A stretch of 64,000 nt of DNA from an uncultured Planctomycetota bacterium (lineage in GTDB: Bacteria > Planctomycetota > Planctomycetia > Gemmatales > Gemmataceae): the NCBI GenBank assembly GCA_963849325.1, contig CAWKHF010000005.1, positions 1,024,001 to 1,088,000 on the forward strand, in the 5' to 3' direction. Position 1 is the first letter of the stretch. The number at the start of each line of letters is the position of its first letter. This document shows positions 12,022 through 58,143 of the stretch, one piece after another. The position numbers and the translations under genes were made by a program. The notes under the pieces are model-generated. The model was not told where the DNA came from, did no database searches, and saw only the letters and a list, made by a program, of their open reading frames with translations.

Positions 12022-12043
12022 GTGTTGGTTCCAGGAACACCTT

Positions 12044-12099
12044 TCGTTTCGCCGCGACGCGCAGCGAGCGCGCGTCCGCTGCGCGTCGCGGCGAAACGA
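12044..12099. repeat. REP-like family A palindrome
   Basis: tcgtttcgccgcgacgcgcagcg...cgctgcgcgtcgcggcgaaacga. Confidence 0.85.
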
Positions 12100-12120
12100 G
12101 GAACTTGTTGTTGGGCAGAA

Positions 12121-13080: not shown

Positions 13081-13135
13081 CGTTGCATACTCCCCGAATG
13101 GTTGACGATTACAGCGCGCAATCCGCTTCGGTTGC

Positions 13136-14390: not shown

Positions 14391-14405
14391 GGCTAACTCG
14401 CCCTG

Positions 14406-15485: not shown

Positions 15486-15509
15486 GACAGAGGGTCCGCA
15501 AAAATCACT

Positions 15510-15561
15510 TCGTTTAGCCGCGACGCGAGCGAGCGCACTCGCTCGCGTCGCGGCTAAACGA
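15510..15561. repeat. REP-like family A palindrome
   Basis: tcgtttagccgcgacgcgagcgag...ctcgctcgcgtcgcggctaaacga. Confidence 0.85.
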
Positions 15562-15578
15562 GGAACTTGTTGGGGGCG

Positions 15579-16517: not shown

Positions 16518-16699
16518 GAGAGAAGGCACTCCATGAGGGGTCCAGGGGCGAACGCCGATGCGCGGCACCCTCTTCGAGGGCGCGAGAGGGACGAATCGAC
16601 CGCCAAAAATATCTAGCTTATTTTTCCGGCCGGCGCGAGTGGAAATGGTGTTGAACCCGGTTCGGACACGCCCGTGATTTTTTCGATCCGGCACCCGCG

Positions 16700-17996: not shown

Positions 17997-18045
17997 TAGT
18001 ATTTCTGTCTCTTTTTGTTTCTTTTCCAAGGGAGGTGGATCGTGC
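17997..18045 (+). promoter_or_regulatory. Conserved 5' leader/RBS of DUF1559 gene, copy 1
   Basis: tagtatttctgtctctttttgtttcttttccaagggaggtggatcgtgc, nearly identical to 19534..19582. Confidence 0.75.
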
Positions 18046-18984
18046 AACGAAATCTGTTCTTGCGTACAGGTGGGAAGCGGAGCGGCTTCACGCTGATTGA
18101 GCTGTTGGTGGTCATTGCCATTATCGCCATCCTGATTGGCCTGTTGCTGCCGGCCGTGCAAAAAGTCCGCGAGGCGGCCGCACGCATGAGTTGCCAGAAC
18201 AACCTCAAGCAGCTGGCCGTCGCCGTCCATTCCTACCACGACACCTATCAACGGTTCCCGTGCAACGGCCCGCAGGCCACCTACAGCATGGGCGGCCAGA
18301 ATTGGAGCTGGCTGGCTCGCATCTTGCCCTACCTCGAGCAGAGTAACCTGTACGTGCAGATGGGTATCCCGAATACGACCCTGGCAACCGAGAATGCGAA
18401 CGGATTACTGGCGACGGGGATCAAGACGCTCCAGTGCCCCAGTGACGGCACGACGAACATGCCCCAAGACGAACACCTCCGACATCGGCGGGAAGGTGGG
18501 GCAAACTAACTACAAGGGCGTCTGCGGCGATAACTGGAGCTGGGGCAAATACGCCAACGGCAACCAACCGACCGGCGGCAGCAGCGGTCTGGATAACGGC
18601 AACGGTATCTTCTACCGCACGGACGGGATTCCCACCACCGGCGGGCATGGCCCCCTGCCGATGGTCGCCATCGTCGATGGCACGAGCAACACCTTCATGA
18701 TCGGGGAAGACGTACCTCTGTACAACAACTGGTGTGCCTGGCCGTACAGCAACGCCGCCACCGGCACCTGCGCCATCCCGCTCAACTACGGCATCCCACC
18801 CGATACCAACCCCGGTGGGGCCGGCGACTGGAACAATGTCTACTCGTTCCGCAGCCGCCACACCAACGGCGCCAACTTCGCCTTCGCCGATGGCAGCGTC
18901 CAGTTCATCAATACCAGCATCACCGCGGCCGTCTATCAGGCCCTCTCCACCTACCAGGGCAGCGAGGTGGTGTCGCGTCCCTGA
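18042..18984 (+). CDS. DUF1559 prepilin-type N-methylation domain protein; frameshift near 18465
   Basis: [46 protein letters not shown]9-DG C-terminus. Confidence 0.92.
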
Positions 18985-18999
18985 GAGTCTGTTCCCCAC

Positions 19000-19033
19000 G
19001 CCGCTTGCGGCTTCGCGCGAAGCCGCAAGCGGC
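19000..19033. repeat. REP-like family E palindrome (GCCGCTTGCGGC arms)
   Basis: gccgcttgcggcttcgcgcgaagccgcaagcggc; half-copies near 29491, 41855 and 45860. Confidence 0.7.
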
Positions 19034-19056
19034 TCCTCCACGGAGATTGCGACGAC

Positions 19057-19503
19057 ATGAGACGAGTTCTTCGTTTCCATCCATTCGTTTTCCTACTGGT
19101 TTGCGCCGCCCCCTTCGTCCCGGGCTGTGGCGGTGACAAGGGCGTTAAGGTCGAGGGCCAGATCGTCCGCGACGGCAACCCTTACGCGGCGGCCGAGGGC
19201 GAGACCGTGAACCTCTCCTTCGCCGGCAAGAACGCCAAGGGCGAGGACGCGATCTACCCTGCGACCGTCAACGCCGGCGCCGGCTCCTTCGTCGTCAATG
19301 GGCCGGAAGGCAAAGGCATTCCGCCGGGCAAGTACAAGATCACCATCAACCTATCCTCCGGGGGTTCTGATCCCGCCAGCCTGGCCAAGCTCGAAAAAGT
19401 CAACGCGCAGTTCGCCCGCATCAACGGCAAGGAATGCGACATCACCAGCGAGCCGGTCCAGAAGATCACCATCGACATCGGCAAAGGGACGGTCGGCAAA
19501 TAA
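19057..19503 (+). CDS. Putative lipoprotein partner of DUF1559 (carboxypeptidase-regulatory-like fold)
   Basis: Lipobox-like VPGCGG, V.G.I..DG.P, GIPPGKYKITI; typical DUF1559 neighbour. Confidence 0.75.
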   Translation: MRRVLRFHPFVFLLVCAAPFVPGCGGDKGVKVEGQIVRDGNPYAAAEGETVNLSFAGKNAKGEDAIYPATVNAGAGSFVVNGPEGKGIPPGKYKITINLSSGGSDPASLAKLEKVNAQFARINGKECDITSEPVQKITIDIGKGTVGK

Positions 19504-19533
19504 GAAGCGTCTTCGCGCGAAGGAATCTCCAGA

Positions 19534-19582
19534 TAGTATTTCTGTCTCTTTTTGTTCCTTTTCCAAGGGAGGTGGATCGTGC
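19534..19582 (+). promoter_or_regulatory. Conserved 5' leader/RBS of DUF1559 gene, copy 2
   Basis: Near-identical to 17997..18045. Confidence 0.75.
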
Positions 19583-20487
19583 GGCGACAACGGTTCGCAC
19601 GTGTCGTGACGGAGAGACGGAATGGCTTCACGCTGATCGAGTTGTTGGTGGTGATCGCCATTATCGCCATCCTGATCGGCCTGTTGCTGCCGGCCGTGCA
19701 GAAAGTCCGCGAGGCCGCCGCGCGCATGGCGTGCGGCAACAACATGAAACAGCTTGGCGTGGCCGTGCACAATTGCAACGACACCAACAGCGTCCTGCCG
19801 CCGTTGTGCGCCGCCAGTTCCGCCGCCGGCGTGGTCATCCCGGCGGGATATCCGCCGTACAGCGGTTATGGGTTTACGATCTTCGGCTTCCTGCTGCCTT
19901 TCCTCGAACAGGGCAACCTGTACACGAAGATGACGACCTCGGGTCCGCAGTACACCACGGTCGTCAAGGCGTTCCTGTGCCCGTCGGACCCCAGCTCGAA
20001 CAACGGCAAATGTACCTCCGGATATACCAGCGATGCCGTCAGCAATTACCAGGCGAACGCCTACGTCTTCGCCAACTGCGCGGCGGGCAACACCTTCGGC
20101 ACCGCCCGCATCCCCGCCACCTTCCAGGACGGCACCTCCAACGTTATCATGTTCACCGAGGCGTACGGTACGTGCGGCAAGGCCGGCATCGCTACCGCCG
20201 AGGGCAGTCTTTGGAACGACTCCAATAGCAGCTGGCGTCCCGCTTTCGACCTGACTAATTCCAAGGGGACCGTTCCCACCACGTACCCGCTCGCTCCCAT
20301 GTTCCAGGTGCAGCCCAACTACACCAGCAACTGCATCTTCACCCAGCCCAGCTCGCCGCACACCGGCGGCATCATGGCGGGCATCGGCGACGGCAGTGTG
20401 CGCTTCATCAGCCAGGGCATTAACCCGACGACCTGGTCCTACGCCTGCGACCCGCGCGATGGCAATCCCCTGACCAGCGGCTGGTGA
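19579..20487 (+). CDS. DUF1559 prepilin-type N-methylation domain protein
   Basis: [36 protein letters not shown]. Confidence 0.92.
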
Positions 20488-30767: not shown

Positions 30768-30856
30768 GAAGGGGTAGCTTCGATCATTTGAGGGCCTACC
30801 TCCTCACCTGCCGTCGCCTCCCCGCCCTGGAAGCGCCGCGGCGGTTGAGGCCCAGG

Positions 30857-31690
<834 letters not shown>

Positions 31691-35677: not shown

Positions 35678-36523
35678 TTACTCGAAGGTCAGGAAGCGTT
35701 CGACGGCGCGGGCGACGCGATCGGGTTGGGTCACGAAAGCGAGGTGCCCGCAACCCGGCAGGTCAACCCGCTGCGAACCGTCGATGCCGTGAGCCAGGTC
35801 CGCCAGGCTGTGCGGGGAGGCCAGCAGGTCGCGGTCGCCGGCCATCAGCAGCGTCGGAACGCGAACGTCGTGCAGGCGCGGCCCCGGATCGAACGATTCG
35901 ACCAGCTGGAAGCGATGCGTCATCACGCTCTGGTCCGTCTGCCAGCACTGCCGCGTGACGAACTCGAAGAGCGGGCCAGGCCGCTGACGCGAGCCGAAGA
36001 GCAGATTGAAGAACTGATTGACGAACGGGCTGTCCGAGGGCAGGGGATAACGAGACAGCACCCAGCCGGCTACCTGCTGGAGCAGGCCACGCTCGAAACG
36101 CGCCCCTACCCCTTGCGTCACCAGCGCCTGCAATCGGTGCGGCCAACGCATCGCCAACTCCAGGGCCAGGACGCCGCCAAAGGAAACGCCGAGGATCGGC
36201 GGCCGTTCCAATCCGAACCAGTCGAGGAACTCGCGCAAGTCCTCGACGAGATCCAGCAACTCAAAACGCCGGCGCAGGGCGAAAAAATCGTCCTCGCCGC
36301 GGAGCTGGTAACTGATGACCTGGAAGTTGCGGGACAGCAGACGAGCCAGCGGGCCAAGCAACTCGAAGCCGCCCGCCAGACCTGGAACGAGTACGAGAGG
36401 TCGTCCTTCGCCCCAAACACTATATCGAGCCGTGTAATATTTCAGATGGGCCAAACCCGAGCGGCCGACCCCGGGACTGAATTCCGCACCACTGCCGCTG
36501 ACCCACTCCAGAGATGCCTGCAC
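35678..36523 (-). CDS. Alpha/beta fold hydrolase
   Basis: LVPGLAG, GVSFGG nucleophile elbow, GDRD, GCGH; GTG start with GAGG RBS. Confidence 0.88.
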   Translation of the reverse strand: MQASLEWVSGSGAEFSPGVGRSGLAHLKYYTARYSVWGEGRPLVLVPGLAGGFELLGPLARLLSRNFQVISYQLRGEDDFFALRRRFELLDLVEDLREFLDWFGLERPPILGVSFGGVLALELAMRWPHRLQALVTQGVGARFERGLLQQVAGWVLSRYPLPSDSPFVNQFFNLLFGSRQRPGPLFEFVTRQCWQTDQSVMTHRFQLVESFDPGPRLHDVRVPTLLMAGDRDLLASPHSLADLAHGIDGSQRVDLPGCGHLAFVTQPDRVARAVERFLTFE

Positions 36524-36602
36524 GCTTCTTCTCCCCTCTCAGTTCATACCTGACACGCGCGATGAGCTTGCCTCGGATTGTTCCGTGGGACAACACTCCC
36601 TG

Positions 36603-36791: not shown

Positions 36792-37167
36792 GCGAGGTTG
36801 GAAGCCTGGAAAAAATGGGGGATATGGCTGTTTGCTTGGGATTAACGAAGCTTTTTCGCTTTACACGACAGATGGAAAGAATCTCAGCCTGACTGGCAAA
36901 CCGGGCGAGTCTTTGGGCGGAGTACGAGGAGACCGTTGACCCGACGTTATGGACCAAGTAGAGTGAGGAGATTAAGGGTGGTTCCCATTTTATGGTTTTG
37001 ACGTGGAGGAATGGACCGAAGCGGAAAAGTGCATGGAGCCAAAGGGTTAGGAATGGCGCCGAACTTTCGGCGCCTTTCGTCAGCGTTCCCGTCAACCGGA
37101 TCAGGGGTAGGAGATGGGCCCGGTGTTTCGACGTACCTGGGAGCAAGTCCTTCAGGTCGGGCGGAGA

Positions 37168-40353
<3,186 letters not shown>

Positions 40354-40443: not shown

Positions 40444-41820
40444 TCACTTGGCGGCGAGAGAGACGCAGACGATCTCCTTGTCGTTGCGCGCGTACATCGA
40501 CTTGTGCGCGAAGGCCGGGTGAGACCAGACGACCTTGCGGTCTCCGATTGGCCCCGTCGGCTCCAGGATGTGAGCGCGGTCGATCGCTTCGTAACCTTTC
40601 GGCGTGAGGCGAGCGATGAGGAGATCGCCCTTCTCGTTGGGCAGAAAGAAACGATCGCCCTGCGCGATCAGGAAAGCGTTGGCCCAGCGCACGCTCTCGT
40701 CGGGGACTTCGGTAGCCTGGAGCGTCATCCAGACGCGCTTGCCGTCTTCGGCGTGCAGGCAGCGCAGCTCGCCGTAACTGCACACGCCGTAGATGTAGCC
40801 GTCCTTGAAGAAGGGCGTGGGAATGATGCTGTTGAGCGTGTCGGTTCGATCCGGTTGCTCGCTCTGCACGCGGCTGCGCCACAGGACGCGGGCGGCCGGC
40901 TTGTCGGCGGGAGGGAGTTGGAGCATCATCGCGCCGTTGTAGAAGGAAGTCACGAACAGCCGATCGCCTTCCAGGCGAGGCGTTGCGATGGTCAGGTTGG
41001 CGTTGGCGCGGAACGGCTGCGACCAGTACAGTTCGCCCGTCTCCGGATTCAGACCGTTGACGGACTCGGGGTGCCAGATGATGAGCTGGCGCTTGCCGCC
41101 AACCTCGTAGATCATCGGCGGACAGTAACCCACCTCGGTGTTCGGCTTCTGAAACGACAGGGCGTGCCATTTTTCCTGGCCGGTGTTCTTGTCGAAGGCG
41201 ACGACGATGTGGTCCTTGCCGCCGACGAGGCAGATGAGCTTGTCGCCGTCGAGCAGCGGATGGGCGGCGAAACCCCACTGCGGCACGGGCGCCTGGTAAT
41301 CCTTGACGAAGTTTTTCGACCACACTACCTTGCCGCCGGCCGCGTCGAGGCAGAAGAGGTGCCCCATCGCGCCAAGAGTAAAGACCTTGCCGTCGTGGAC
41401 GACCGGCGTGGTTCGCGGCCCACAAGGATAAGAGATGCGATAGAGGCAATCGTACTCGTGGCTCCAGAGAATCTTCCCGGAGGCGTCATCGAGACAGAGG
41501 ACACGTTCCTTGCCGGGGACCGCCTTGCGGGCGAAGGGGTCGCCGGGGTTCTGGACGCCTTCCGGCAGGATGCGGTCGGTGACGTAGACGCGATCCTTGA
41601 CGACGGCGGGACCGGCATAGCCGCCGCCAATGGGCGTGCGCCAACGGACCTTGGGACCGCCGGACGGGAAGCGCTCGAGGATGCCCGTCTCGCGCCAGAC
41701 ACCGTCGCGCTTCGGCCCCAACCACTGCGGCCAGTCATCGGCCCGGACGAGAAGCGGCGGACTCAGAAGCGTGGTCAGGATCAGCAAGGGAAGGCCGAGA
41801 CGGACTGGCATGGAGCGCAT
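40444..41820 (-). CDS. PQQ-binding-like beta-propeller repeat protein (BamB-like)
   Basis: Signal peptide, DDWPQWLGP.RDG, GPRTTP, G...W blades, WSHPAFA. Confidence 0.88.
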   Translation of the reverse strand: MRSMPVRLGLPLLILTTLLSPPLLVRADDWPQWLGPKRDGVWRETGILERFPSGGPKVRWRTPIGGGYAGPAVVKDRVYVTDRILPEGVQNPGDPFARKAVPGKERVLCLDDASGKILWSHEYDCLYRISYPCGPRTTPVVHDGKVFTLGAMGHLFCLDAAGGKVVWSKNFVKDYQAPVPQWGFAAHPLLDGDKLICLVGGKDHIVVAFDKNTGQEKWHALSFQKPNTEVGYCPPMIYEVGGKRQLIIWHPESVNGLNPETGELYWSQPFRANANLTIATPRLEGDRLFVTSFYNGAMMLQLPPADKPAARVLWRSRVQSEQPDRTDTLNSIIPTPFFKDGYIYGVCSYGELRCLHAEDGKRVWMTLQATEVPDESVRWANAFLIAQGDRFFLPNEKGDLLIARLTPKGYEAIDRAHILEPTGPIGDRKVVWSHPAFAHKSMYARNDKEIVCVSLAAK

Positions 41821-42036
41821 GTGCTTCCTCTCTTCACGAAGGGGACGTTGCCCAAGCCGCTTGCGGCTCGGACTACCGACTCTGATTGTACGACGTGCCG
41901 CCCTACGCGCGTATTCAGACCCCACCTCCCGCCGGCTGCCTCGTTTCCTACTGGCAATCGACTCGCCGACGTGATACCTTCAGAACAGATGCCCACGCCC
42001 CCTGTTTTCACCCCGTGGTCTCGGATAATTCGACCC

Positions 42037-43387
42037 ATGGAAGATCGTCAACAGCGCTGCTCGCGTCGCAAGTTCCTCGCCTCGGCGGCGGCCCTCACCC
42101 TGGCGGGCGGCGTCTCCGCCCGCGAAGCGCCCGAGGGATCGCTGCCGCTGTCGCGCACCCGGCCGGGCAAGCCCTCCACCAAGGGCCGTAAACCGCTCGC
42201 CGTCCTGTCCACGGTGTATCGACCGCTGTCGCACGCCTACCACATCGGCGGACGCTTCCTGCACGGCTACGCACGCGGCGGACAACTGCACGTGCCGCAC
42301 CACTACGTCCACTCCCTCTACGTCGATCAGACGCCGGACAACGACCTGTCGCGCGACGTCGCCCGCGATTTCGGCGTCCGCGTCACGCGCCGCGCCGGCG
42401 CCGACCGCGTGCGGCCGGTCGCCGAGGCGCTCACCGCCGGCGGCAAGCTCGCCGTCGAGGGCGTCCTCCTCGTCGCCGAGCACGGCAACTACGAACGCAA
42501 CGACAAGGGACAGATCCTCTATCCGCGCCTCGAGTTGATGCAGGAGATCGTCAACGTCTTCCGCCAGACCGGGCGGAGCGTGCCGGTCTTCAATGACAAG
42601 CACCTGTCGTACACCTTCGCCAACGCCAGGAAAATGCTCGATTGGTCGCGCGAGCTGAACTTTCCGATGATGGCCGGCTCCAGTCTGCCCGTGACCTGGC
42701 GCGGCCCGGAGCTGGAGCTGCCCCTGCGAGTCGCCCATCGAGGACGCCCTGGTGGCGGGGTATGGTCCCATCGAGGTATACGGCTTCCACGCCCTGGAGA
42801 CGCTGCAAGTCATGATGGAGCGCCGCAAGGGCGGCGAGACCGGCGTCAAGGCCGTCACCTGCCTGAGCGGCAAGGACGTGTGGAAGGCCGGCGATGCCGG
42901 GCGCTGGAGCTGGGACTTGCTCGAAGCGGCGCTGGCGCGCAGCGAGACGGTCAACCCCGGCGACATCCGCGTCAACGTCGGCAGCATGGCCGTCTACAAC
43001 TACAAGCCGACGCCCGCCCTGGCCTTCCTCCTCGAATACCGCGACGGCACGCGCGGCACGATCCTGTTGCTCAACGGCCACGTCCTCGACTTCACTTTCG
43101 CGGCCAAGCTGCGCGGCGACAACAAACCCGCCTCGTGCCTGTTCCGCCTGCCGCCGCCGCCCGGCGCGCGCTTCTTCGACGCCCAGGTGGCCAACCTCGA
43201 AAAGTTCCTCGATACCGGCAAGGCTCCCTACCCCGTCGAGCGCACCTTGCTGACCACCGGCATCCTCGACGCCGCCATGAACAGCCACCACCAGCGCGGC
43301 ACGCGCCTCGAGACACCCGAACTCGACGTGCGCTACACGGCCCCCGCGGACAGCGGCTTCCTCCGCGGCGCCGTCGCCGAGTTTTGA
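42037..43387 (+). CDS. Tat-exported hypothetical oxidoreductase-like protein; frameshift near 42730
   Basis: SRRKFL Tat motif, GVLLVAEHG.Y, VFNDKHLS, MAGSSLP, YGFHALE, YPVERTLLTTG. Confidence 0.75.
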
Positions 43388-43482
43388 TAGGGTTTAGGAT
43401 TTAGGGTTTAGGGTGAAGAAGGGCCGGCAGCGTCCGCCTCTTTCCCAAAACCCTCCACCCTAAACCCTAAACCCTAAACCCT
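43388..43482. repeat. Heptamer inverted repeat (TTTAGGG/CCCTAAA)
   Basis: tagggtttaggatttagggtttagggt ... aaaaccctccaccctaaaccctaaaccctaaaccct, abutting ATG 43483. Confidence 0.9.
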
Positions 43483-43999: not shown

Positions 44000-44500
44000 T
44001 CCGGAATGTTTTGGAGGGGGAGAAAAAAAGTTCCGCCGCTGGCTCCTTCGGCGTCGCCCAGTCACCGAAGTCGTCATACGGCGGAACGCTGGTAATCGTA
44101 TCCTCCGCATCGGGAGTTGCAAGAGGAGTTTCAAAAAAAATCTGAAAAATCCATCACCCCCTCCTCCAGCGTGAAAACGACGGAAGAGCGAGACTTCCTC
44201 CGGCGGATAGCCGATACAACAGGAAGAGGGTCCGCAGCCGTTACTTTCCGTCGAGAGAAGAAGAGGAGCCGGCGAGAAAAGGAAGGAACATTGTTGAGAA
44301 AGTACCTGCTCTAACTATTCTAACTTTTCCGTGCAGGATGCCTCAGTTCAGTGAACTACCCAGATTTCGCAATCGATTCAGATTGCCAACAGATTCACTC
44401 TAAGCGCATGATAGAAGGACGTGACGAGAAGTAGTTGGGGTGAAAGACAGGACTTGGGTAGTTGAGTGAAGAGAGAGACGAGACTTCGGGACTTTCGGGG

Positions 44501-44529
44501 TTGCCGGTCGGGGGGGCGGTAGATATACT
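44501..44529 (+). promoter_or_regulatory. Candidate sigma70 promoter for the FAS/PKS cluster
   Basis: TTGCCG-N17-TATACT about 70 bp upstream of ATG 44598. Confidence 0.55.
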
Positions 44530-44597: not shown

Positions 44598-45070
44598 ATG
44601 CGCTTCAACCTGATCGACCGGATCGTCGAAGTGCGGCCGGGCCAGGGTCTGCGAGCGGTGAAGAACCTGACCCTCGGCGAAGAGTACCTGGCCGACCACT
44701 TCCCGACCTTCCCGGTGATGCCCGGCGTGCTGATGCTGGAAACGCTGGTCGAGGCCGGCGCCTGGCTGTTGCGGCTGACGGACGATTTCGCCACAGCGTA
44801 ATCGTGCTGCGGGAAGCGAAGGGCGTCAAGTACGGCACCTTCATGGAGCCGGGCAAGCAGATGGCCATCTCGGTCGAGTTGATCGAACGCGGCAGCGGCC
44901 TGGCGACGTTCAAGGGCAAGGGCGAGACGGAGGGGCAGAGCACGGTGGCCGCTCGTTTGACCCTGGCTCACTACAACCTGCGCGACCGCGATCCGGCGAT
45001 GCAGGCGACCGACGAACGGCTGGTACGGCATTTGCGGGAACAATACGGATTGCTGCGGTTGTCCGCTTGA
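44598..45070 (+). CDS. FabZ/FabA-like hydroxyacyl-ACP dehydratase; frameshift near 44795
   Basis: LIDRI, DHFPTFPVMPGVLMLE. Confidence 0.88.
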
Positions 45071-45089
45071 GCAAAGGACATTGACACCC

Positions 45090-45852
45090 ATGCGGCTGAA
45101 GGACCAGATCGCCCTCGTCACCGGAGGCAGCCGAGGCATCGGCCGGGGCATCGTCCAGGCGTTCGCCGCCGAGGGTGCCAAGGTCGCCGTCGTCTACCGC
45201 GGCAGCCAGCGAGGCCGCCGACCAGGTGACGACCGACATCCGCGAAAAGGGCGGCACGGCCGTGGCCATCCAGGCCGACGTCGCCGACGCCGCCTCCGTG
45301 CAGGCGTGCGTCGAGCGGGTCGAGAAGGAGCTGGGGCCGGTCAACATCCTGGTCAACAACGCCGGCGTGATCGAGGACGATCTGTTCGTCCGCATGGAGC
45401 CGGAAGCCTGGAACAAGGTGATCCAGACCAACCTGGGCGGCGTGTTCAACTTCTGTCATGAGGTCGCCTTCGGCATGATGCAGCGGCGCAGCGGGCGGAT
45501 CATCAATATCTCCAGCGTGGCGGCCGAGCACGTGAACATGGGCCAGACGAACTACGCCGCCAGCAAGGGGGCGATCAACTCCTTCACCCGCGCCCTGGCC
45601 GTCGAGTTGGCCAAGCGCGGCGTGACGGTCAACGCCATCGCTCCCGGCTTCATCGAGACGGACATGAGCGCCGCCGTCCGCAACAAGGCCGGCGACCTGA
45701 TCACCAAGCTCATCCCCATGCGCCGCATCGGCACGCCGGAGGACATCGCCCGCGTGGCGGTGTTCCTGGCCAGCGCCGACAGCGCCTACATCACCGGACA
45801 GGTGCTGACTGTGGACGGCGGCTTGACGCTGGGGGCCGTGGGGGCGGATTGA
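45090..45852 (+). CDS. fabG: 3-oxoacyl-ACP reductase; frameshift near 45205
   Basis: TGGSRGIG, NNAG, YAASK, PGFIETDM. Confidence 0.9.
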
Positions 45853-45874
45853 TGAATTAGCCGCTTGCGGCTTA

Positions 45875-45963
45875 GAGGCACGAACCGAATGTGGCGGCAC
45901 GTTTGTAACGTGCCGTACAATCCAACACGTTGAAAACGTGTTGCCACATTTTGGTAGAGCCTC
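45875..45963. mobile_element. 89-bp MITE-like element, copy 2 (TTA target duplication) inserted in a family E repeat
   Basis: TTA|GAGGC...GCCTC|TTA; removing it restores gccgcttgcggcttagcg. Confidence 0.8.
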
Positions 45964-46041
45964 TTAGCGAGGGCCGATGGCCCGAATCGTGGAAACGGTA
46001 GTTTGCTTCGCTGTCTCTAATCTTGTGGGAGGTTTGCTCCA

Positions 46042-46443
46042 ATGCCGACGCAGGACGAAATTTACTCGAAGGTGTCCGCGACCCTGGTCGAGGCGCTGAA
46101 CGTGGACGAGGAAGACATCAAGCCGACGTCCACGCTGCAGGGCGACCTGGGCGCCGAGTCGATCGACTTCCTGGACATCGTCTTCCGCCTGGAACGCGAG
46201 TTCGGGATCAAGATCCCGCGCGGCGAACTGTTCCCCGAGTCGATCTTCCAGGGCGACCCGGAATTCGTGCAGAACGGCCGCGTCACGGCCAAGGGCCTGG
46301 AGGAGCTGCGCACCAAGATGCCGTTCGCCGACCTGACGAAGTTCGAGGAAGACCCGGAAGTCGGCAACCTGAGCGACCTGTTCACGGTCGATCTGATCAC
46401 GCGCTACATCCAGGGCAAGCTGGTAAACGGCAGCCAGAATTAA
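46042..46443 (+). CDS. Extended acyl carrier protein (133 aa)
   Basis: DLGAESIDFLDIVFRLE; GGAGG RBS. Confidence 0.9.
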   Translation: MPTQDEIYSKVSATLVEALNVDEEDIKPTSTLQGDLGAESIDFLDIVFRLEREFGIKIPRGELFPESIFQGDPEFVQNGRVTAKGLEELRTKMPFADLTKFEEDPEVGNLSDLFTVDLITRYIQGKLVNGSQN

Positions 46444-46484
46444 CGAGCCGCTGGCGACGTGGCGGCCCGGATAGGACGGCGAGC

Positions 46485-46991
46485 ATGCGCTGGATCTGGA
46501 TCGATCGCTTCGTGGACTTCCAGAGTGGCAAGTCGGCGCGGGCGGTGAAGAACCTGAGCCTGGCCGAGGACCACTTCGCCGACCACTTTCCCGGCTATCC
46601 GGTGATGCCGGCGGCGCTGATCCTGGAAGGGCTGGCGCAGACAGGCGGCATCCTGGTCGGCGAGGCCAACAAGTTTCAGGAGAAGGTGGTGCTGGCCAAG
46701 GTGCCGCGCGTGGTCTTCCACCGCGAGATGCTGGCCGGCGAGCAGCTGATCTACGAGGTGGAGATCCAGCACCTGCGCCCCGAGGGGGCGTCGGTGCAGG
46801 GCCGCGTTCGGGTCGGCGATACGGTGACGGCCGAGGCGGAGATTTTCTTCGCCCATCTGGACCAGTCGCGCTCGAAGCAGCTGTTCGGCGATCACAATTT
46901 CGTCTTCAGCGGCGAGATGAAGTATCTGCTGGGCCGGATGACCGGCGGGAAGGACACCACGGGAGGCCCTGTCGGGACGGCGGGGGGCTGA
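46485..46991 (+). CDS. Second FabZ-like dehydratase
   Basis: WIDRF, DHFPGYPVMPAALILEGLAQ. Confidence 0.88.
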   Translation: MRWIWIDRFVDFQSGKSARAVKNLSLAEDHFADHFPGYPVMPAALILEGLAQTGGILVGEANKFQEKVVLAKVPRVVFHREMLAGEQLIYEVEIQHLRPEGASVQGRVRVGDTVTAEAEIFFAHLDQSRSKQLFGDHNFVFSGEMKYLLGRMTGGKDTTGGPVGTAGG

Positions 46992-47097
46992 GTGTGCAAC
47001 AGGACGCGGGCGGCGGATTCACGAGAAACATGAGAAGAGTAAGGAGGGGCGGCTTGGCTGACTCGCTGACTTCGGCGAGGGTCGCCGCTGCTGTTCC

Positions 47098-48384
47098 ATG
47101 GCTGTTCCATCGCGCCGGGTCGTCATCACCGGCATCGGCATCATCAGCCCCATCGGCCTCGATGCGGCCACCTTCTGGCGCTCGCTGCACGAGGGGCGCA
47201 GCGGCGTCCGGCCCATCCGTACCTTCGACGCCTCCGGCCTGCCGGTGCGCTTCGCCGGCGAGATCCCCGACTTCGACGCCAAGGATTACGTCGAGAAGAA
47301 GGACCGCAAAAGTCTGCGAGTGATGGCCCGCACCATCCAGCTGGCCGTCGCCGCCGCCCAGCGCGCCCTGGACGACGGCCAGGTGGACAAGAGCAAGCTC
47401 GACCCGACGCGCTTCGGCGTCGAGTTCGGCGCCGGCCTGATCGCCACCGAGCTGCCGGACCTGGCCGACGCGGCCGCACGTCAGCGCCAACTGCCAGCCG
47501 GGCCGCGTCGATCTGGAGAAGTGGGGCGAGCAGGGCTTGCCGGCCATCCAGCCGCTGTGGATGCTCAAGTATCTGCCCAACATGCTCGCCTGTCACGTCT
47601 CGATCCTGCACGACGCCCAGGGGCCCAACAACAGCATCACCGAGAGCGACGTCGCCAGCCTGCTGGCCCTGGGCGAGGCGTACCGCATCCTGGGCCGCGA
47701 CCAGGCCGACTTCTTCCTGGTCGGCGGCGCCGAGAGCAAGATCAACCCGCTGAGCATGGTTCGCCAGTGCCTGTTCGAGCCGCTGTCGCACCGCAACGAG
47801 ACCCCGGAGAAGGCGTGCCGGCCGTTCGACCGCGACCGCGACGGCCTGGTGCTCGGCGAGGGGGCCGGCGTGTTCGTCGCTGGAGGAACTGGAGCACGCC
47901 CGGCGGCGCGGCGCGCGCATCTACGCCGAGGTGGTCGGCTTCGGCGCCGCCTTCGACCGCGAGCTGACGGGCGACGGCCTGGCGCGGGCCGTCCGCGCCG
48001 CCCTGGCCGAGGCCGGCATCGGGCCGGAGGACGTCGATCACGTCAACGCCCACGGCCTGGCGACGCGCGAATCGGACGCCTGGGAGGCACGCTGTTTGCA
48101 AGAGGTGTTCGGCGACTGCTTCGCCGCCCGTGCCGGTGTTCGCCGCCAAGAGCTACATCGGCAACCTCGGCGCCGGCGGCAGCACGACCGAGCTGGCCGC
48201 CAGCCTGCTGGCCCTGCCGCACGGACAGGTGCCGCCGACGCTCAACTACGAGCAACCCGACCCGGATTGTCCCATCACGGTACTGGCCGGCGCGCCGCGG
48301 CCGATGACGCGGCCCTACGTGGTCAAGGTCAGCTTCACCCAGATGGGCCAGTGCGCGGCCGTGGTCGTGCGGAAATGGGAGTAA
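47098..48384 (+). CDS. Ketosynthase-like protein lacking the catalytic Cys (chain-length-factor-like); frameshifted
   Basis: VVITGIG, GPNNSITESDVAS (Asp at the Cys position), RPFD, GEGAG, NAHG, KSYIGN (Asn for the second His). Confidence 0.8.
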
Positions 48385-48396
48385 GAATCGATTTTG

Positions 48397-48457
48397 GCGA
48401 GCGGGGGGCGTCAGCCCCCTGTTGCTTCTAACAGGGGGCTGACGCCCCCCGCTCGCC
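48397..48457. repeat. REP-like palindrome (family F)
   Basis: ggcgagcggggggcgtcagccccctgtt...aacagggggctgacgccccccgctcgcc. Confidence 0.8.
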
Positions 48458-48475
48458 AGCAGAGGAGCGGCATTC

Positions 48476-49777
48476 ATGCGACGACGAGTCGTCATCACCG
48501 GCATGGGGGCCATCACGCCGCTGGGCCACAGCGTCAAGCGACATCGTTCGAGGCCCAGCTGGCCGGCACGCAGCGGCGTCGGCCCGATCCACTGCTTCGA
48601 CGCCCGCCGCTTCCCGACCCGGTTCGCCGCCCAGGTCAAGGACTTCGACCTGGCCGTTTCGTCCCCGACGCCGGCCGCTGGGCGCACTCCGGCGTCAACA
48701 GCCAGTTCGCCGCCGCCGCCGCCCAGCAGGCCCTGCGACGACGCCGGCCTGCTCGACGACCGCCGCGTGGATCGCAATCGCTTCGGCGTCTACCTCGGCT
48801 CCGGCGAGGGCATCCAGGACTTCCACAACCTCGTGTCGCTGATCGCCAGTCCTATCGCCGCGAGACGCGCCAGTTCGACGCGGCCGCGTTCGAGCAGCGG
48901 CGGCCTGAACGCCGTTCCACGCCGAGCCGCGAGGCCGAGCAGGAGCTGCACACGACGCCGGCCCACCTGGCCGCTCACTTCGACCTGCGAGGGCCCGAAC
49001 TACAACTGCCTGACGGCCTGCGCCGCCAGCAGCCAGGCCATCGGCGAGGCGACCGAGCTGATCCGCCACGGCGACGCCGACCTGATGCTCGCCGGCGGCT
49101 CGCACAGCATGATCCACCCGCTCGGCGTCACCGGCTTCAACCTGCTGACCGCCCTGTCCACGCGCAACGACGAGCCGGAGAAGGCGTCGCGGCCGTTCGA
49201 CCTCAACCGCGACGGCTTCGTCCTCGGCGAAGGCGCCGGCATGCTCGTCCTGGAGGAGCTGGAGCACGCCCGGCGGCGCGGCGCCGACATCTACGCCGAG
49301 CTGACCGGCTACGGCTCGACGGCCGACGCCTTCCGCGTCACCGACAGCCATCCCGACGGCCGCGGCGCCATCGCCTGCATCCGGGCGGCGCCTGAAGGAC
49401 AGCGGCCTGAACGCCGCGGACATCGGCTACATCAACGCCCACGGCACCAGCACCCAGGTCAACGACCGCGTCGAGACGCTGGCCATCAAGAAGGTCTTCG
49501 GCGAGGACGCCTACCGAAGGTCCCGGTCAGCAGCAGCAAGAGCATGCTCGGCCATCTGATCGCCGCCGCCGGCGCGGTCGAGCTGATTACCTGCGTCGAG
49601 GCGCTGCGCCGCGGCGTGCTGCCGCCGACGATCAACTACGAGACGCCCGACCCGGAGTGCGACCTCGACTACATCCCCAACGCGGCCCGCGAGAAACGCG
49701 TCCACCACGCCCTGAGCAACAGCTTCGGCTTCGGCGGGCAGAACATTTCGCTCATCGTCAGCCGTTTTTCATCGTAG
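48476..49777 (+). CDS. fabF: FabF-type beta-ketoacyl-ACP synthase (active KS); frameshifted
   Basis: TACAASS, NAHGTST, KSMLGH (Cys-His-His), NSFGFGG. Confidence 0.88.
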
Positions 49778-49855
49778 TTCGATCCGCGAACGTCAACGAG
49801 CGGAAAAATACCGCTCGCGGACGCTTGCGGATCGGATGACTCGGAGGTTGCCGCT

Positions 49856-50941
49856 GTGTTGTTCTGGCTCGGTGTGGCGTTGATGTGCAGTATGCCGGCC
49901 GCTCTCGGCGCGTTCATGGTTTTCCTGCATTTTTACCTGCGGCTGAAAGTACCTGCACTTTCTCGTCCGCATCTTCCAGGAGAAGCCGCTGTTCATCATC
50001 CCGCGCGGCCAGCCCGACGCCGAGGCCGAACAGTTCGCTTTCCCACGGCGACGGCCTGACGCTCTCCGGCTGCTACCTGCGTGCCACCCGGCCGCGGCGC
50101 GGCGTCATCCTGTTCGGCCTGGAGTTCGGCTCCAACTGCTGGTCGTGCCGCCCTACTGCGAGCACCTCGTCGCCAGCGGCTTCGACGTCTTCGCCTTCGA
50201 GTCGCGCAACCAGGGCGACAGCGACTGCCAGCCCGGCTACGAGCCGCTGCAGTGGGTGACGGACTACGAGGTGCGCGACGTCGCAGGCGGCGCTGGCCTA
50301 CCTGAAGGGCCGGCCCGACGCCGACCCGCGCGGCGTCGGCTTTTTCGGCATCAGCAAGGGGGCCGGCGCCGGCCTGCTCGCCGCTGGCCGCGACCCCTAC
50401 GTCCGCTGCTGCGTCACCGACGGCATGTTCGCCACCTACACGACGCTGGTGCCGTACATGCAGCAGTGGTTCCGCATCTACAACAACCATTATCGCGGTC
50501 CAGGGCCTGATCCCGCCGTGGTATTACGGGCTGATCGGCCTGGCGGGCCTGCGGCAGATCGAGCGCGAACGGCACTGCCACTTCCCGCACCTGGAGACGG
50601 CATCTGCCGCGGCTGGCTCCGCGGCCGCTGCTGATGATCCACGGCGAGGCCGACACCTACATCAAGCCGGAGATGGCCGTCCGTCTGTTCGAGTTCGCCC
50701 GCCAGCCCAAGGAGTTCTGGCTGGTCGAGGCGCCAAGCACAACCAGGCGCTGCAGGTCGCCGGCGAGGAGTATCGGCAGCGCGTGCTGGCGTTCTTCGAG
50801 CAGCACCTGGCCGAGCGCCGGAAGGAGCGCGAGCCACTCCGCCGATCGGCGACAAGGAGCACAGGGCCAGCCACGCTGCGAGCGCGGCCGAGCCACGGAG
50901 GGCGTCGCACTCGTTCCGTGCCTCGCCTTCTTCGGCTGTGA
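49856..50941 (+). CDS. Membrane-anchored alpha/beta hydrolase; frameshifted, end approximate
   Basis: N-terminal TM, RNQGDS, GISKG nucleophile elbow, HGEAD, H.QAL. Confidence 0.75.
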
Positions 50942-50960
50942 CGGCGTGTCGCCGAGAGCA

Positions 50961-51061
50961 GACCACGGATTGCACGGCTAACCGGATACGGATAGAGCTA
51001 GAGAGCCAGTCCGCACGCCAACGTATTGTATTCTGCCTACGTGTACCGTGTATCCGTGGCT
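50961..51061. repeat. Degenerate ACCACGGAT-arm palindromic element
   Basis: accacggattgcacgg...ccgtgtatccgtgg; same arms as 6164..6268. Confidence 0.6.
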
Positions 51062-51106
51062 TATACCTTCGTCCCGGATTCGTGTCTCCGTCCCCGCGAG
51101 AACGCC

Positions 51107-52872
51107 ATGAGTACGATCCTCCGCCGGGGCGTGAAGCGGTCCTCCACTTCCTGCTGCACAAAGTGGTCCTCAAGGCAATGGCCCGGCCCATCCGCCGCCG
51201 CCTGGCGCAGTTCGAGGCGGCCACGCACCGGCCGCGCGAGGTGCAGGAGGCCCTGCTGCGCGACATCCTGGCCTACCAGGCGGCCACCGCCTTCGGCCGC
51301 GACCACCACTTCGACGCCATCCGCACGCGTCGACGACTTCCGCCGTCAGGTGCCCGTGGCCGGCTACGAGTACGTCGAGCCGTACATCGCCCGCGTCCGT
51401 CGCGGCGAGACGGCCGCCCTGCTGGCCGACCCGCGCGTCCACATGTTCGCCCTGACCAGCGGCACCACGGCCGACGCGCAAGTTCATCCCGGTCACGCCG
51501 CAGTACCTGGCCGACTACCGCCGCGGCTGGAACATCTGGGGCCTGAAGGTCTTCCGCGACCACCCCGAGGTCGCGCTTGCGGCCGATCGTGCAGATGTCC
51601 GGCGACTGCGACGAGTTCCGCACCGAGTCCGGCGTGCCCTGCGGCGCCGTCACCGGCCTGACGGCCACGATGCAGAAGCGCATCATCCGCTGGCTCTACT
51701 GCGTGCCGGCCGTGCGTCGGCCGCATCAAGGACCGCGCGGCCAAGTATTACGCCGCCCTGCGTCTGAGCCTGCCGCGCCGGGTCGGCATGATCATCGCCG
51801 CCAACCCCAGCACGCTCATCAACCTGGCCCGCGCCGGCGACCAGGAGAAGGAGTCGCTGATCCGCGACCTCCACGACGGCACGCTGTCGCCGCGCTTCGA
51901 CGTGCCCGCCGACATCCGCGCCGAGCTGACCGCGGCGCGCTGCGCCGCCACCCCGAGCGGGCCCGCGAGCTGGAAGAGATCGTCCGCCGCACCGGCACGC
52001 TGTATCCCGAAGGACTACTGGCCGGCCGATTGCCTGCTGGGCAACTGGACCGGCGGCAGCGTCGGCGCCTACCTGCGGCACTACCCGCGCTACTACGGCG
52101 ACCACGCCGGTCCGCGACGTGGGCCTGATCGCCAGCGAGGGCCGCATGACCATCCCGCTGGCCGACGGCACGCCGGCCGGCGTCCTCGACGTGACCACGC
52201 ACTACTTCGAGTTCATCCCCGAGGCGGAGGGCGACAGCCCGCAGCCGACCGTGCTGGGCGCCGCACGAGCTGCGCGAGGGCGCGACGTACTATCATCCTG
52301 CTGACGACGGCCTTCGGCCTGTACCGCTACCACATCCACGACCTGGTGCGCGTGGCCGGCTTCCACAACGGGACGCCGCTGATCGAGTTCCTGAGCAAGG
52401 GGGCCCACTTCGCCAACATCACCGGCGAGAAGCTGTCGGAGTATCACGTCACGCAGGCGATGGCCGAGGTGCTGCGCGAGCTGGACCTGACGCTGACGGC
52501 CTACAGCCTGGCTCCGTGCTGGCCAACGACGGCGCATCGGCGCCGACCGAGGATTTCGAGCAGCCATATTACGGTCTGTTCGTCGAGCACGGCGACCTGC
52601 CCGACGCCTCGATGGGGCAGCGCCTGGCGGAGCGACTGGACGCTCGGCTGCGGCAGGTGAACATCGAGTACGACAGCAAGCGCGAGAGCCAGCGGCTGGC
52701 GCCGGTGCGGCTGGAGTTGGTGCGGACCGGCTTCTGGCCGCAGTGGGACCGCGCCCGCCTTCTGCAAACCGGCGGCACGCTGGAGCAGTACAAGCATCCC
52801 TGCCTGATCGCCGACCTCAACTTCCGCAGCCGCGTCATGGGCGAGCAAGTCCTGCTCGCCGGCGGTTCGTGA
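51107..52872 (+). CDS. GH3 family acyl-acid amido synthetase; several frameshifts
   Basis: TAFGRDH.F, VPV..YE...PYI, ALTSGTT, ASEG, YFEFIP, GLYRY.I.D.V, TGEK, QYKHPCL. Confidence 0.85.
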
Positions 52873-55856: not shown

Positions 55857-55910
55857 TCCGAGCCTGAAGCGTAAGCGAAGAGATTTCTTCGCTTACGCTT
55901 CAGGCTCGGA
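55857..55910. repeat. REP-like family B palindrome
   Basis: tccgagcctgaagcgtaagcgaag...cttcgcttacgcttcaggctcgga. Confidence 0.85.
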
Positions 55911-55972
55911 ATGAAGCTCGCTGTCCCCTGCTGGGATGCGTTCGCGCGGGGCACGGCGGTACAATACCGGAC

Positions 55973-58143
55973 ATGGCCGAGAACCTGACCGGCATCATCG
56001 AGCGCGTGACATTCCACAATCCCGACACGGGCTTTGCCGTGCTGCGCGTGCAGGTGCGCGGGCGGCGCGGGCTGGTGACCGTCGTGGGACAGATGCCGTC
56101 CGCCGTCGTCGGCGAGTACATCCAGGCCAGCGGCGAATGGATTCAGGACCGCACGCACGGCGAACAATTCAAGGCCGCCGAGCTGCGCTGCACGCCGCCG
56201 CACACCGTCGAGGGCATCGAAAAATACCTCGGCTCGGGGCTGGTCAAGGGCATCGGGCCGCACTTCGCCAAGAAGATCGTCGCCGTCTTCGGCGAGCGGA
56301 CGTTGCAGGTCATCGACGAAAGCCCGGCGTTCCTGAAGGAGATCAAAGGCATCGGCCCGCGCCGCATCCAGCGCATCCGCGAGAGTTGGCAGGAACAGAA
56401 GGCGGTGCGCGACATCATGCTCTTTCTGCAATCCAACGGCGTCGGCACCGGCCGGGCCGTGCGCATTTACAAGACCTACGGCGACCAGGCGGTCGAGCTG
56501 GTGCGCGGCAACCCCTACCGCCTGGCGACCGACGTCTGGGGCTTCGGCTTTCAGACCGCCGACGAGTTAGCGGGACGGCTCGGCATCGATCGCGCCTCGC
56601 CGCTGCGCACCGCGCCGCCCTGCGTTTCGTGCTGCAAGAGGCCAGCCAGGAAGGCCACGTCGGCGCTCCCGAGGAAGCCATCGTGCGGCAGACGGCGGAG
56701 TTGACGGACATCCCGGACGAGATCCTCCGCGCCGCCGTCGAGCACGAACGGCAGGCCGGCGACGTGGTGCGCGAGCCGGGCGGCGACGAGCCGTGGCTCT
56801 ATCTGAAACCGCTGTTCCTCGCCGAGCTGGGCCTGGCCCGCTCGGTTCGCAAGTTGCGGCAGGGGCGCCATCCGTTGCCGGCGATCGATGTCGAGGCCGA
56901 TCTGGCACGGGTCGAGCAGAAGATGGGCCTGCAACTGGCCGTCACCCAGCGCGACGCCATTCGAGCGGCAGCGCGCGAAAAGATGCTGATCGTCACAGGC
57001 GGACCCGGCGTTGGGAAGTCAACCATCGTCCGCGGCATCCTGGAGGTTTTTGCCGCGCGGAACCAGCGCTGCGCCCTGTGTGCTCCGACCGGCCGCGCCG
57101 CCAAGCGCCTCAGCGAGACGACCGGCCGTGAGGCCAGGACCATCCACCGGCTGCTGGAATTTGACCCGGCGCTGGGCGGATTCAAGCGCGACGCGGCCCA
57201 ACCGCTCGACCTCGACCTGCTCGTGGTGGACGAGGCGTCGATGGTCGATGTCGTGCTGATGTATCAACTGTTGCGGGCCGTGCCGGCGCACGCCTGCGTG
57301 GTGCTGGTGGGCGACGTCGATCAACTGCCGTCGGTGGGTCCGGGCCTGGTGCTGGCCGATCTCATCGCCTCCGGCACGGTGCCGGTGGTACGGCTGACGG
57401 AGATTTTCCGCCAGGCCGGCCAGAGCTGGATCGTGCGCGCGGCCCACGCCATCAAGCACGGCGAGCTACCCGAGTCGGCGCCGGCCGGCCAGGGCGATTT
57501 CTACTTCGTCGAGGCCAACACGCCCGACGGCATCCTCGAACGCATTGTCGCCATGGTGCGCGAGCGCATCCCCGCCCGTTTCGGCCTCGATCCACTCCGC
57601 GACGTGCAGGTGTTGACGCCGATGAACCGCTCGGAGCTGGGTTCGCAGTCGCTCAACCTCCGCTTGCAGGAGGTGCTTAACCCCGACGGTGGTTCGCAGG
57701 TACAGCGCTTCGGCTGGACCTTCCGCGCCGGCGACAAGGTCATGCAGACGCACAACAATTATCAGAAGGAAGTCTTCAACGGCGACATTGGCCGCATCAC
57801 TGCCATCGACGAAACCGAGCGCGAGCTGACCGTCGAGTACGACGGCAAATCGGTGGTGTATGATTTCGGAGAGCTGGACGAGCTAAGTCTGTCATTCGCC
57901 TGTACGATCCATAAGGCGCAAGGTTCGGAATATCCCGCCGTCGTCATCCCGTTGCACACGCAGCATTACATGATGTTGCAACGCAACTTGTTATACACCG
58001 GCGTGACGCGCGGCAAGAAGCTGGTGGTGATCGTCGGCAGTCGCAAGGCGCTGGAGATGGCCGTGCAGCGCCAGGACACGAATCGACGCTATTCGGCGCT
58101 GCGGCGCCGCTTGCAAGAAGAGGAGGAGCGACCGACCGGATAG
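55973..58143 (+). CDS. recD2: ATP-dependent RecD-like DNA helicase; frameshift near 56605
   Basis: KGIGP Hh[50 protein letters not shown]. Confidence 0.93.

Follow-up and report, generated by a model that had tools for sequence, protein, structure and literature searches.

An eight-gene array joining fatty acid synthase-like enzymes to an alpha/beta-hydrolase and a GH3 homologue in Gemmataceae, a candidate operon for a membrane amino-lipid

We analysed a 64,000-nucleotide stretch of contig CAWKHF010000005.1 (positions 1,024,001 to 1,088,000; assembly GCA_963849325.1) from an uncultured Planctomycetota bacterium of the family Gemmataceae, hereafter called the window, and in it the gene array at 44598-52872. 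The entire coding signal of this segment lies on the + strand, where Pfam searches of stop-free window fragments place eight genes in series: a first dehydratase (DH1), a ketoreductase (KR), an acyl carrier protein (ACP), a second dehydratase (DH2), two ketosynthases (KS-A and KS-B), an alpha/beta-hydrolase and a GH3 amido synthetase homologue. From sequence comparison, we hold it to be moderately probable that the array is a single operon, similar to the OlsH/OlsI pathway of Singulisphaera acidiphila and provided with its own acyl-chain supply, whose product is a membrane amino-lipid (an N-acyl amino acid) of the ornithine-lipid type. An earlier note, made from the sequence alone, had described eight co-directional genes here, and Pfam confirms their content. 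Its overall interpretation stood in part: the amide-forming role of GH3 and its linkage to the KS pair were upheld, whereas the product class, which it took to be an undescribed lipid or signal molecule, was not, since a membrane amino-lipid of the ornithine-lipid type is more likely.

The window genes were recovered end to end by frameshift-aware alignment of the proteins of a relative, L002, which has the same eight genes, all intact. As listed in Table 1, they run from DH1 to GH3; identical over aligned residues relative to L002 are 143/156 for DH1, 231/252 for KR, 116/133 for ACP, 141/161 for DH2, 368/427 for KS-A, 361/427 for KS-B, 251/340 for the hydrolase and 479/580 for GH3. The earlier suggestion of a promoter ahead of the cluster agrees with three sigma-70-like sites in the gap 5' of DH1, and no such site was found inside the cluster on the + strand. 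Five sites occur in the region where shuffled sequence would give 1.0; all are matches to the consensus only, and promoters of planctomycetes are not well characterised. Furthermore, FabD, FabH and an enoyl reductase (ER) were not found by Pfam in the cluster, as the earlier note had it, nor among 63 longer frames of the remaining window with a high GC content at third codon positions.

Table 1. Candidate promoters and genes of the array, in window coordinates
Feature	Position	Strand	Remarks
Candidate promoters	44294-44321, 44383-44412, 44501-44529	+	sigma-70-like, 9/12 matches each; AT-richer gap 5' of DH1
DH1, FabZ/FabA-like hotdog dehydratase	44598-45070	+	Pfam FabA-like (match 44598-45067); frame break near 44790
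KR, FabG-type 3-oxoacyl-ACP reductase	45090-45852	+	Pfam adh_short_C2, KR (match 45081-45849); break near 45210; alternative TTG start 45081
Long ACP, 133 aa, intact	46042-46443	+	PP-binding domain (match 46042-46440)
DH2, FabZ-like dehydratase, intact	46485-46991	+	Pfam FabA-like (match 46497-46988)
KS-A, FabF-derived partner resembling a chain-length factor (CLF)	47098-48384	+	ketoacyl-synthase (match 47098-48381); 1-base insertions at 47476, 47879, 48120
KS-B, FabF-type ketosynthase	48476-49777	+	ketoacyl-synthase (match 48476-49774); 11 frame breaks, several compensating
Membrane-anchored alpha/beta-hydrolase	49856-50941	+	weak Pfam signal 50260-50631; 8 breaks; start GTG 49856 or TTG 49859
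GH3 amido synthetase homologue	51107-52872	+	GH3 N, M, C domains (fragments 51002-52869); 11 breaks

Conservation of the array was assessed by scanning one genome per species with a 15-sequence GH3 alignment, which gave 234 encoded relatives; the best 80 of these yielded 79 loci, whose synteny was determined by tblastn with the eight L002 proteins. The relatives examined share 53-85% identity with the query, and nearly all are labelled Planctomycetota, Gemmataceae or Gemmatales. Of 71 loci with 1.1 kb or more of upstream sequence, 70 have the hydrolase directly 5' of GH3, and of 56 with 6.5 kb or more, 53 have the eight genes colinear. Among the closest relatives, then, the hydrolase and GH3 genes do accompany the KS pair, the test that the earlier note had set. 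Median intergenic gaps are 15-111 nucleotides (nt), with 51 nt between KS-B and the hydrolase and 15 nt between the hydrolase and GH3. Since no flanking gene is common to more than eight loci, the conserved unit consists of exactly these eight genes; in the flanks of the examined loci, no conserved tailoring, regulatory or export gene stands beside the array. In eight loci (L015:2461-3207, L019:1882-2631 and six others), an extra short-chain dehydrogenase/reductase (SDR; adh_short_C2) is encoded on the same strand about 0.6-1.1 kb 5' of DH1 and may serve there as a reductase belonging to the cluster; the window lacks such a gene upstream of DH1.

In the window sequence as given, DH1, KR, KS-A, KS-B, the hydrolase and GH3 have no intact open reading frame (ORF). 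They carry 35 frame breaks, of which 25 are single-base insertions and 10 read as single-base losses (DH1, 1; KR, 1; KS-A, 3; KS-B, 11; hydrolase, 8; GH3, 11); ACP and DH2 carry none. The corrected frames contain zero stop codons. Ratios of nonsynonymous to synonymous substitution rates (dN/dS) against L002 are 0.10 for KS-A, 0.14 for KS-B, 0.145 for the hydrolase and 0.167 for GH3, compared to 0.095, 0.087, 0.12 and 0.107 in the intact control pair L004/L002; by this measure, purifying selection acts on the cluster genes. Other window genes are likewise frame-split (His_biosynth, 30778-31684; DUF1559, 18000-18981; epimerase, 12124-13428; RecD2, 55868-58140), and at 8 of the 79 public loci the cluster genes are similarly broken into several pieces. 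Because stops are lacking, dN/dS is low and similar splits occur across the window and in those public loci, the breaks are probably assembly errors. We regard it as highly improbable that the breaks are real and the array is a decaying pseudogene set in this organism: zero stops, dN/dS of 0.10-0.17 versus 0.09-0.12 in the intact control, and the splits elsewhere argue against decay, even though six of the eight genes lack an intact frame and the breaks are unevenly spread, with 30 of the 35 in the last three genes of the 8.3-kb cluster and 0 in the 3.2-kb sigma-54 activator/regulator gene at 37111-40350. As causes of the breaks and their density, homopolymer-linked error was dropped, the contexts being mostly non-homopolymer, and GC content was set aside, its relation to the uneven density being weak.

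The last gene of the array encodes a GH3 family member. The L002 orthologue scores 251, 82.6 and 61.6 bits on PF03321, PF23571 and PF23572, respectively, and a profile of the family matches JAR1 (4epl) end to end (E 1e-44) and plant GH3s at E 1e-44 to 1e-32. Among relatives, the nucleotide-binding motifs TSGTT and [LIV]ASEG are kept in 64/65 and 65/65 sequences and the GLYRYxIHD pattern in 35/65, and G401, R404, Y405 and D409 are invariant in 87 GH3 representatives. The cluster GH3 resembles the plant enzymes (JAR1 and GH3.5/6/8/12/15) in full-length homology, similar length and the spacing of the three nucleotide-binding motifs; it differs from them in being bacterial and placed in a lipid-synthesis operon, with a substrate that is presumably a fatty acid and not a hormone. 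Its C-terminal piece matches full-length proteins of about 583 aa, the named ones of which are annotated as 'GH3 auxin-responsive promoter family protein' and come from metagenome-assembled genomes (MAGs) of Gemmataceae. The next-closest members, at 40-50% identity, belong to Planctomycetaceae, Planctomycetales, Phycisphaerae and Omnitrophota MAGs, and the subfamily comprises 1535 cluster representatives at E <= 1e-30. Isolates of Gemmata, Fimbriiglobus and Tuwongella are absent among the top 120 matches listed, all of which are metagenome or MAG proteins. One candidate for the window's own GH3, P0271, was ruled out at 51-66% identity.

An N-acyl amino acid made by a GH3 enzyme in a planctomycete, as the earlier note had envisaged, has an experimental precedent. 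In the available portions of a J Biol Chem 2025 paper (PMC12493201), GH3-like OlsH of S. acidiphila converts a free fatty acid with ATP and Mg2+ to N-acyl ornithine, independently of ACP and CoA, and deletion of olsH abolishes trimethylornithine lipid. The same portions describe the alpha/beta-hydrolase OlsI as an O-acyltransferase that adds a second, ester-linked acyl chain; its acyl donor is drawn as an unknown 'X', and where the free fatty acid comes from is likewise not settled there. GH3 enzymes are stated there to share the ANL adenylate-forming fold, and the OlsH tree holds homologues from Gemmata palustris, Fimbriiglobus ruber and Tuwongella immobilis, which the authors place 'in all cases' in a common operon with OlsI (PMC12493201). 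By the accessible text of PMC7534041 and PMC7828035, trimethylornithine lipid is the major polar lipid of Gemmataceae. The former source further reports amide-bound beta-OH-C16:1, beta-OH-C18:1 and iso/anteiso beta-OH-C17:1 acids in this family, 'mainly present as lyso-ornithine lipids'. The analogy with stieleriacines drawn earlier concerns a mechanistically unrelated route: NasY-type synthases are held responsible for those N-acyl tyrosines, and the paper concerned does not use the term 'GH3'.

The cluster is thus like the OlsH/OlsI system in that a planctomycete GH3 and an alpha/beta-hydrolase are encoded together, as neighbours in the 70 loci counted above, the GH3 carries the nucleotide motifs, and the host family makes (trimethyl)ornithine lipids. 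It differs in that the cluster hydrolase has an N-terminal membrane helix and in that six fatty acid synthase (FAS)-like genes are joined to the pair; the words 'ketoacyl', 'acyl carrier' and 'FabZ' are absent from PMC12493201. A published link between an FAS-like module and a GH3/hydrolase pair was not found in the literature searched, most subscription journals lying outside it.

Several observations weigh against an ornithine-lipid operon of the OlsH/OlsI type. The cluster GH3 scores 102.3 bits (E 2.3e-29) on the OlsH equivalog NF052613, which is its only NCBIfam match and has a cut-off of 620 bits, and none of the 87 GH3 representatives scanned from the closest 150 comes near that cut-off (best E 1.1e-39). 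At about 583 aa the enzyme is plant-like in length, compared to 526 aa for OlsH, and its motifs stand at about 117, 340 and 401, versus 100, 330 and 397 in JAR1 and 114, 289 and 353 in OlsH. By these sequence measures the cluster GH3 is not an OlsH orthologue, and ornithine is therefore only a candidate head group. OlsH homologues of at least 30% identity are reported for Gemmatales in the available part of PMC12971839; these may be a different, second GH3, and if a second, true OlsH exists, this cluster would make a different N-acyl amino acid lipid. S. acidiphila encodes the N-methyltransferase OlsG within its operon; here an OlsG-like methyltransferase was absent in and beside the array, the 63 window frames scanned contained no methyltransferase domain, and neither olsG nor any other gene lies between the hydrolase and GH3. 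Moreover, OlsH favoured non-hydroxylated fatty acids in vitro, and the hydrolase was likened to OlsI (Sinac_1601) by family and GH3 neighbourhood rather than by sequence comparison. The conservation data cover the best 80 of 234 genomic relatives and so the closest clade only. Within them the linkage is broken in three loci: L010 has GH3 alone (L010:9737-11689, an open frame of 650 codons), and L053 and L055 have only the hydrolase and GH3 (L053:8876-11686 and L055:8890-11686), with divergently oriented genes upstream.

The hydrolase has the membrane character that the earlier note ascribed to it, with an N-terminal hydrophobic helix and a Ser-Asp-His triad. An AlphaFold2 (AF2) model (pLDDT 88) predicts a long helix at residues 17-66, and the triad is invariant in 39 sequences (alignment A2), with S193 in GxSxG, D292 and H321. 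The closest folds to the model are esterases, monoacylglycerol lipases, thioesterases and the polyketide synthase (PKS)-associated hydrolases GrgF and DcsB; a profile search of PDB sequences agrees. In NCBIfam the protein has only a 38-bit lactonase match, and in the protein atlas it falls in generic alpha/beta-hydrolase clusters, mostly of Planctomycetota. These fold and profile neighbours do not separate thioesterase from acyltransferase roles, and the enzyme may release acyl chains or transfer them. Chain release had been proposed earlier; OlsI, in the available account of it, is an O-acyltransferase, and here either role may apply.

The two ketosynthases, 34% identical to each other, differ sharply at their catalytic positions. 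The catalytic Cys of KS-A is replaced in all 48 true KS-A sequences, by Asp in 40 and by Glu in 8, and the column of the second His has Asn in 36 of 50 rows, two of the rows being KS-B cross-hits; the window has Asp and Asn at these positions. In KS-B, Cys, His and His are each kept in 51/51 relatives. An intact triad in KS-B next to an adjacent paralogue without Cys is the residue pattern of a KS/CLF pair. As the earlier note had recognised, KS-A is by its residues a catalytically dead partner of the active KS-B, and by analogy we infer that the two form a KS/CLF-like heterodimer.

Both ketosynthases are closest to FabF among solved structures. On the FabF equivalog TIGR03150 (cut-off 493.75), the L002 proteins stay below the threshold, at 475.5 bits for KS-B and 343.2 bits for KS-A, and L002 KS-B exceeds the cut-off of the broader KAS-II subfamily NF005589 (465.9 vs 387 bits). 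KS-B scores 365.6 bits to FabF 1j3n, 258.5 bits to the actinorhodin KS, 247.4 bits to 6smo_B and 201.8 bits to 6kxd_A, which places it closer to FabF than to any of the other three. Entry 6smo we take to be an aryl-polyene KS. Entry 6kxd has the same sequence as 6kxe, the ishigamide ketosynthase, according to the available part of a preprint (bioRxiv 10.64898/2026.05.19.726425). PDB entry 9s5h, named only '3-oxoacyl-(ACP) synthase' and containing two different KS chains (B and C), matches KS-B with 309.7 bits and KS-A with 166.8 bits.

These scores bear on the polyene that the earlier note had proposed from gene content, KS-B and KR being closest to FabF and FabG. Such a highly reducing type II PKS would make a polyene or other specialised chain, which the hydrolase would release and GH3 would amidate into a secondary metabolite or signal. 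The array does resemble the Ape/Iga polyene PKSs in its KS with an inactive partner, KR, two small hotdog dehydratases, discrete ACP and lack of an ER in the cluster; as no OlsH orthologue, the GH3 may accept other substrates, and GrgF and DcsB are among the fold neighbours of the hydrolase. However, KS-B is far closer to FabF (366 bits) than to the presumed polyene enzymes 6smo_B (247 bits) and 6kxd_A (202 bits) or to the actinorhodin KS, and KR passes the FabG equivalog cut-off. The adenylating loader, glycosyl and acyl transferases, LolA/MMPL export genes and hotdog thioesterase of Ape clusters do not occur in the cluster. The array is also near-universal in its clade (53/56) without a conserved tailoring, regulatory or export gene, and it therefore looks like a source of core lipid rather than of an accessory metabolite; in the eight loci with the extra upstream SDR, that protein could act as a reductase. 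Thus, we consider a polyene or related secondary metabolite unlikely.

A closer parallel to the KS pair is offered by the anammox 'Cluster I' pair amxFabFmut/amxFabF2, a KS/CLF-like heterodimer that decarboxylates malonyl-ACP and so initiates synthesis without FabH, as described in the available part of the preprint cited above (bioRxiv 10.64898/2026.05.19.726425). By that account, the two systems share a Planctomycetota host and a triad-less FabF just 5' of an intact FabF, beside a dedicated ACP and a FabZ-like dehydratase. They differ in the residue replacing Cys, which is Val or Thr there and Asp or Glu in KS-A, and in context, the anammox genes lying in a ladderane cluster with radical-SAM and desaturase-like genes and without a GH3 or hydrolase.

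The remaining enzymes are fatty acid synthase-like to varying degrees. The L002 KR reaches the FabG equivalog (302.5 bits on TIGR01830; cut-off 297.75), whereas the dehydratases fall short of FabZ, with 84.9 bits for DH1 and 95.0 bits for DH2 against cut-offs of 113 (NF000582) and 155 bits (TIGR01750). The catalytic His of DH1 is kept in 50/50 relatives, and its Glu column holds Gln in 33, Glu in 15, the lineage of the window among them, and His in 2; the window DH1 itself has Glu. DH2 keeps both His and Glu in 52/52. Because DH2 always retains Glu while DH1 mostly has Gln, the two proteins would fit a hotdog heterodimer in which, for most lineages, a single active site is complete. The ACP scores 48.8 bits on TIGR00517 (cut-off 70.45 bits; about 78 aa) and stays under all AcpP cut-offs. 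It is 128-137 aa long, has the DLGAESID motif in 52/53 relatives and shows a mean column identity of 83% over 36 sequences, its extra stretch included. This stretch of about 50 residues is conserved like the core, for example in the invariant M93-P-F-A and L113-F-T-V (alignment A5), and in an AF2 model (pLDDT 82), which has an ACP fold, it forms an internal insert of about 45-50 residues ahead of the final helix instead of a tail. Foldseek matches of this model are ACPs.

Since KS-A lacks Cys, ACP and both dehydratases lie under the NCBI cut-offs, and FabD, FabH and FabI are missing from the array and from the other window frames scanned, the cluster is, by these sequence marks, not a canonical primary FAS, which had been a possible objection to the earlier note. 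The same points argue against the six FAS-like genes being a general or very-long-chain elongation system, for housekeeping or for C24-C30 hydroxy acids, that merely stands beside an independent hydrolase and GH3; so do the colinearity in 53/56 loci and the short median gaps of 51 nt and 15 nt on either side of the hydrolase. Scores of KS-B and KR that reach or approach the FabF and FabG equivalogs would suit such a system, and a long ACP with a two-subunit hotdog dehydratase presumably resembles the mycobacterial FAS-II elongase. In addition, L053 and L055 keep the hydrolase and GH3 without nearby FAS-like genes, so the halves can separate, and Gemmataceae contain omega- and (omega-1)-hydroxy C24-C30 acids, according to the accessible text of PMC7534041. 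On balance, we judge an unconnected elongation system to be quite improbable.

For the membrane amino-lipid operon, the biochemical steps that we infer, together with the heterodimers, head group and chain type, would run as follows. The heterodimer of KS-B and the dead KS-A would prime itself by decarboxylation of malonyl-ACP and elongate chains on the cluster's own insert-bearing ACP. The FabG-type KR would yield 3-hydroxyacyl-ACP, which DH1 and DH2, probably as a hotdog heterodimer, would dehydrate and perhaps isomerise; enoyl reduction, if any, would be borrowed from the housekeeping FAS. A KS, KR and two-dehydratase module without its own ER could plausibly supply an unsaturated 3-hydroxy chain. 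The membrane-anchored hydrolase would then take acyl chains off ACP, either freeing the acid for GH3 or, like OlsI, transferring a second acyl chain onto the 3-hydroxyl. Finally, GH3 would adenylate the free (3-hydroxy) fatty acid and couple it to an amino acid through the amino group of the latter, ornithine being the leading candidate. An amino-lipid operon carrying its own chain supply would explain why the hydrolase/GH3 pair is tied to a dedicated ACP and elongation enzymes; likewise, it would explain the absence of FabH, through a self-priming KS pair, and the absence of tailoring and export genes.

A cluster without FabH and FabD needs some priming route, and GH3 might supply it by acting first, as the adenylating loader does in aryl-polyene clusters, activating a carboxylic acid starter and loading it onto the long ACP, with the hydrolase as a terminal thioesterase or acyltransferase. 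The ANL adenylate-forming fold of GH3 enzymes (PMC12493201, available portions) would allow activation, and the conserved ACP insert could be a docking surface. Nonetheless, the characterised GH3s (JAR1, GH3.5/6/8/12/15 and OlsH) all transfer to an amine, OlsH needs neither ACP nor CoA by the same source, and the anammox FabF pair primes itself without a loader in the available part of its preprint (bioRxiv 10.64898/2026.05.19.726425). We therefore find a starter-loading GH3 very unlikely. Within the amino-lipid operon, a more specific and tentative proposal is that the self-priming KS pair, half-dead DH pair and insert-bearing ACP may constitute a private chain factory that feeds a couple of the hydrolase and a 'long', non-OlsH GH3, giving GH3 its unsaturated 3-hydroxy acid and the hydrolase its ACP-bound donor. 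The 'long' GH3 subfamily of this proposal would extend across Planctomycetota and neighbouring phyla and be distinct from OlsH.

Elsewhere in the window, a 966-aa ORF on the + strand (40504-43404) does not represent a single gene: the first half runs antisense to a PQQ_2/BamB-like gene (40447-41979, -), and the end (about 42710-43384) corresponds to a 452-aa protein without Pfam domains that is encoded 5' of DH1 in L002 and seven other loci. Some 8 kb upstream of the cluster, at 35681-36538 (-), a second, unrelated alpha/beta-hydrolase is encoded (Abhydrolase_1, 74.9 bits). Sugar-nucleotide genes are lined up at 10018-16736 (-), some of them frame-split; they encode an RGP-like glycosyltransferase, several NAD epimerases/dehydratases, a nucleotidyl transferase and a GHMP kinase. 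They are followed by an IS110-family transposase at 16741-17712 (DEDD_Tnp_IS110 and Transposase_20) and by two DUF1559 genes at 18000-20484 with N-terminal prepilin-type methylation motifs, the first split across two frames; DUF1559 proteins with this motif are a typical planctomycete family. Rfam and tRNA scans of the window gave no matches.

A pathway of this type was published in 2025, and the product probably belongs to a class of membrane lipid that is already known; should it prove to be plain ornithine lipid, the array would be a refinement of a known pathway and not a new kind of system. After the anammox enzymes, KS-A and KS-B would be the second KS/CLF-like pair derived from FabF in planctomycetes, distinguished by the acidic residue that takes the place of Cys, and the cluster marks a large GH3 subfamily. 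The two open questions of the OlsH/OlsI pathway, where its free (3-hydroxy) fatty acid originates and which molecule gives the second chain, become directly testable, and the array may offer an origin for the unsaturated beta-hydroxy acids of Gemmataceae ornithine lipids.

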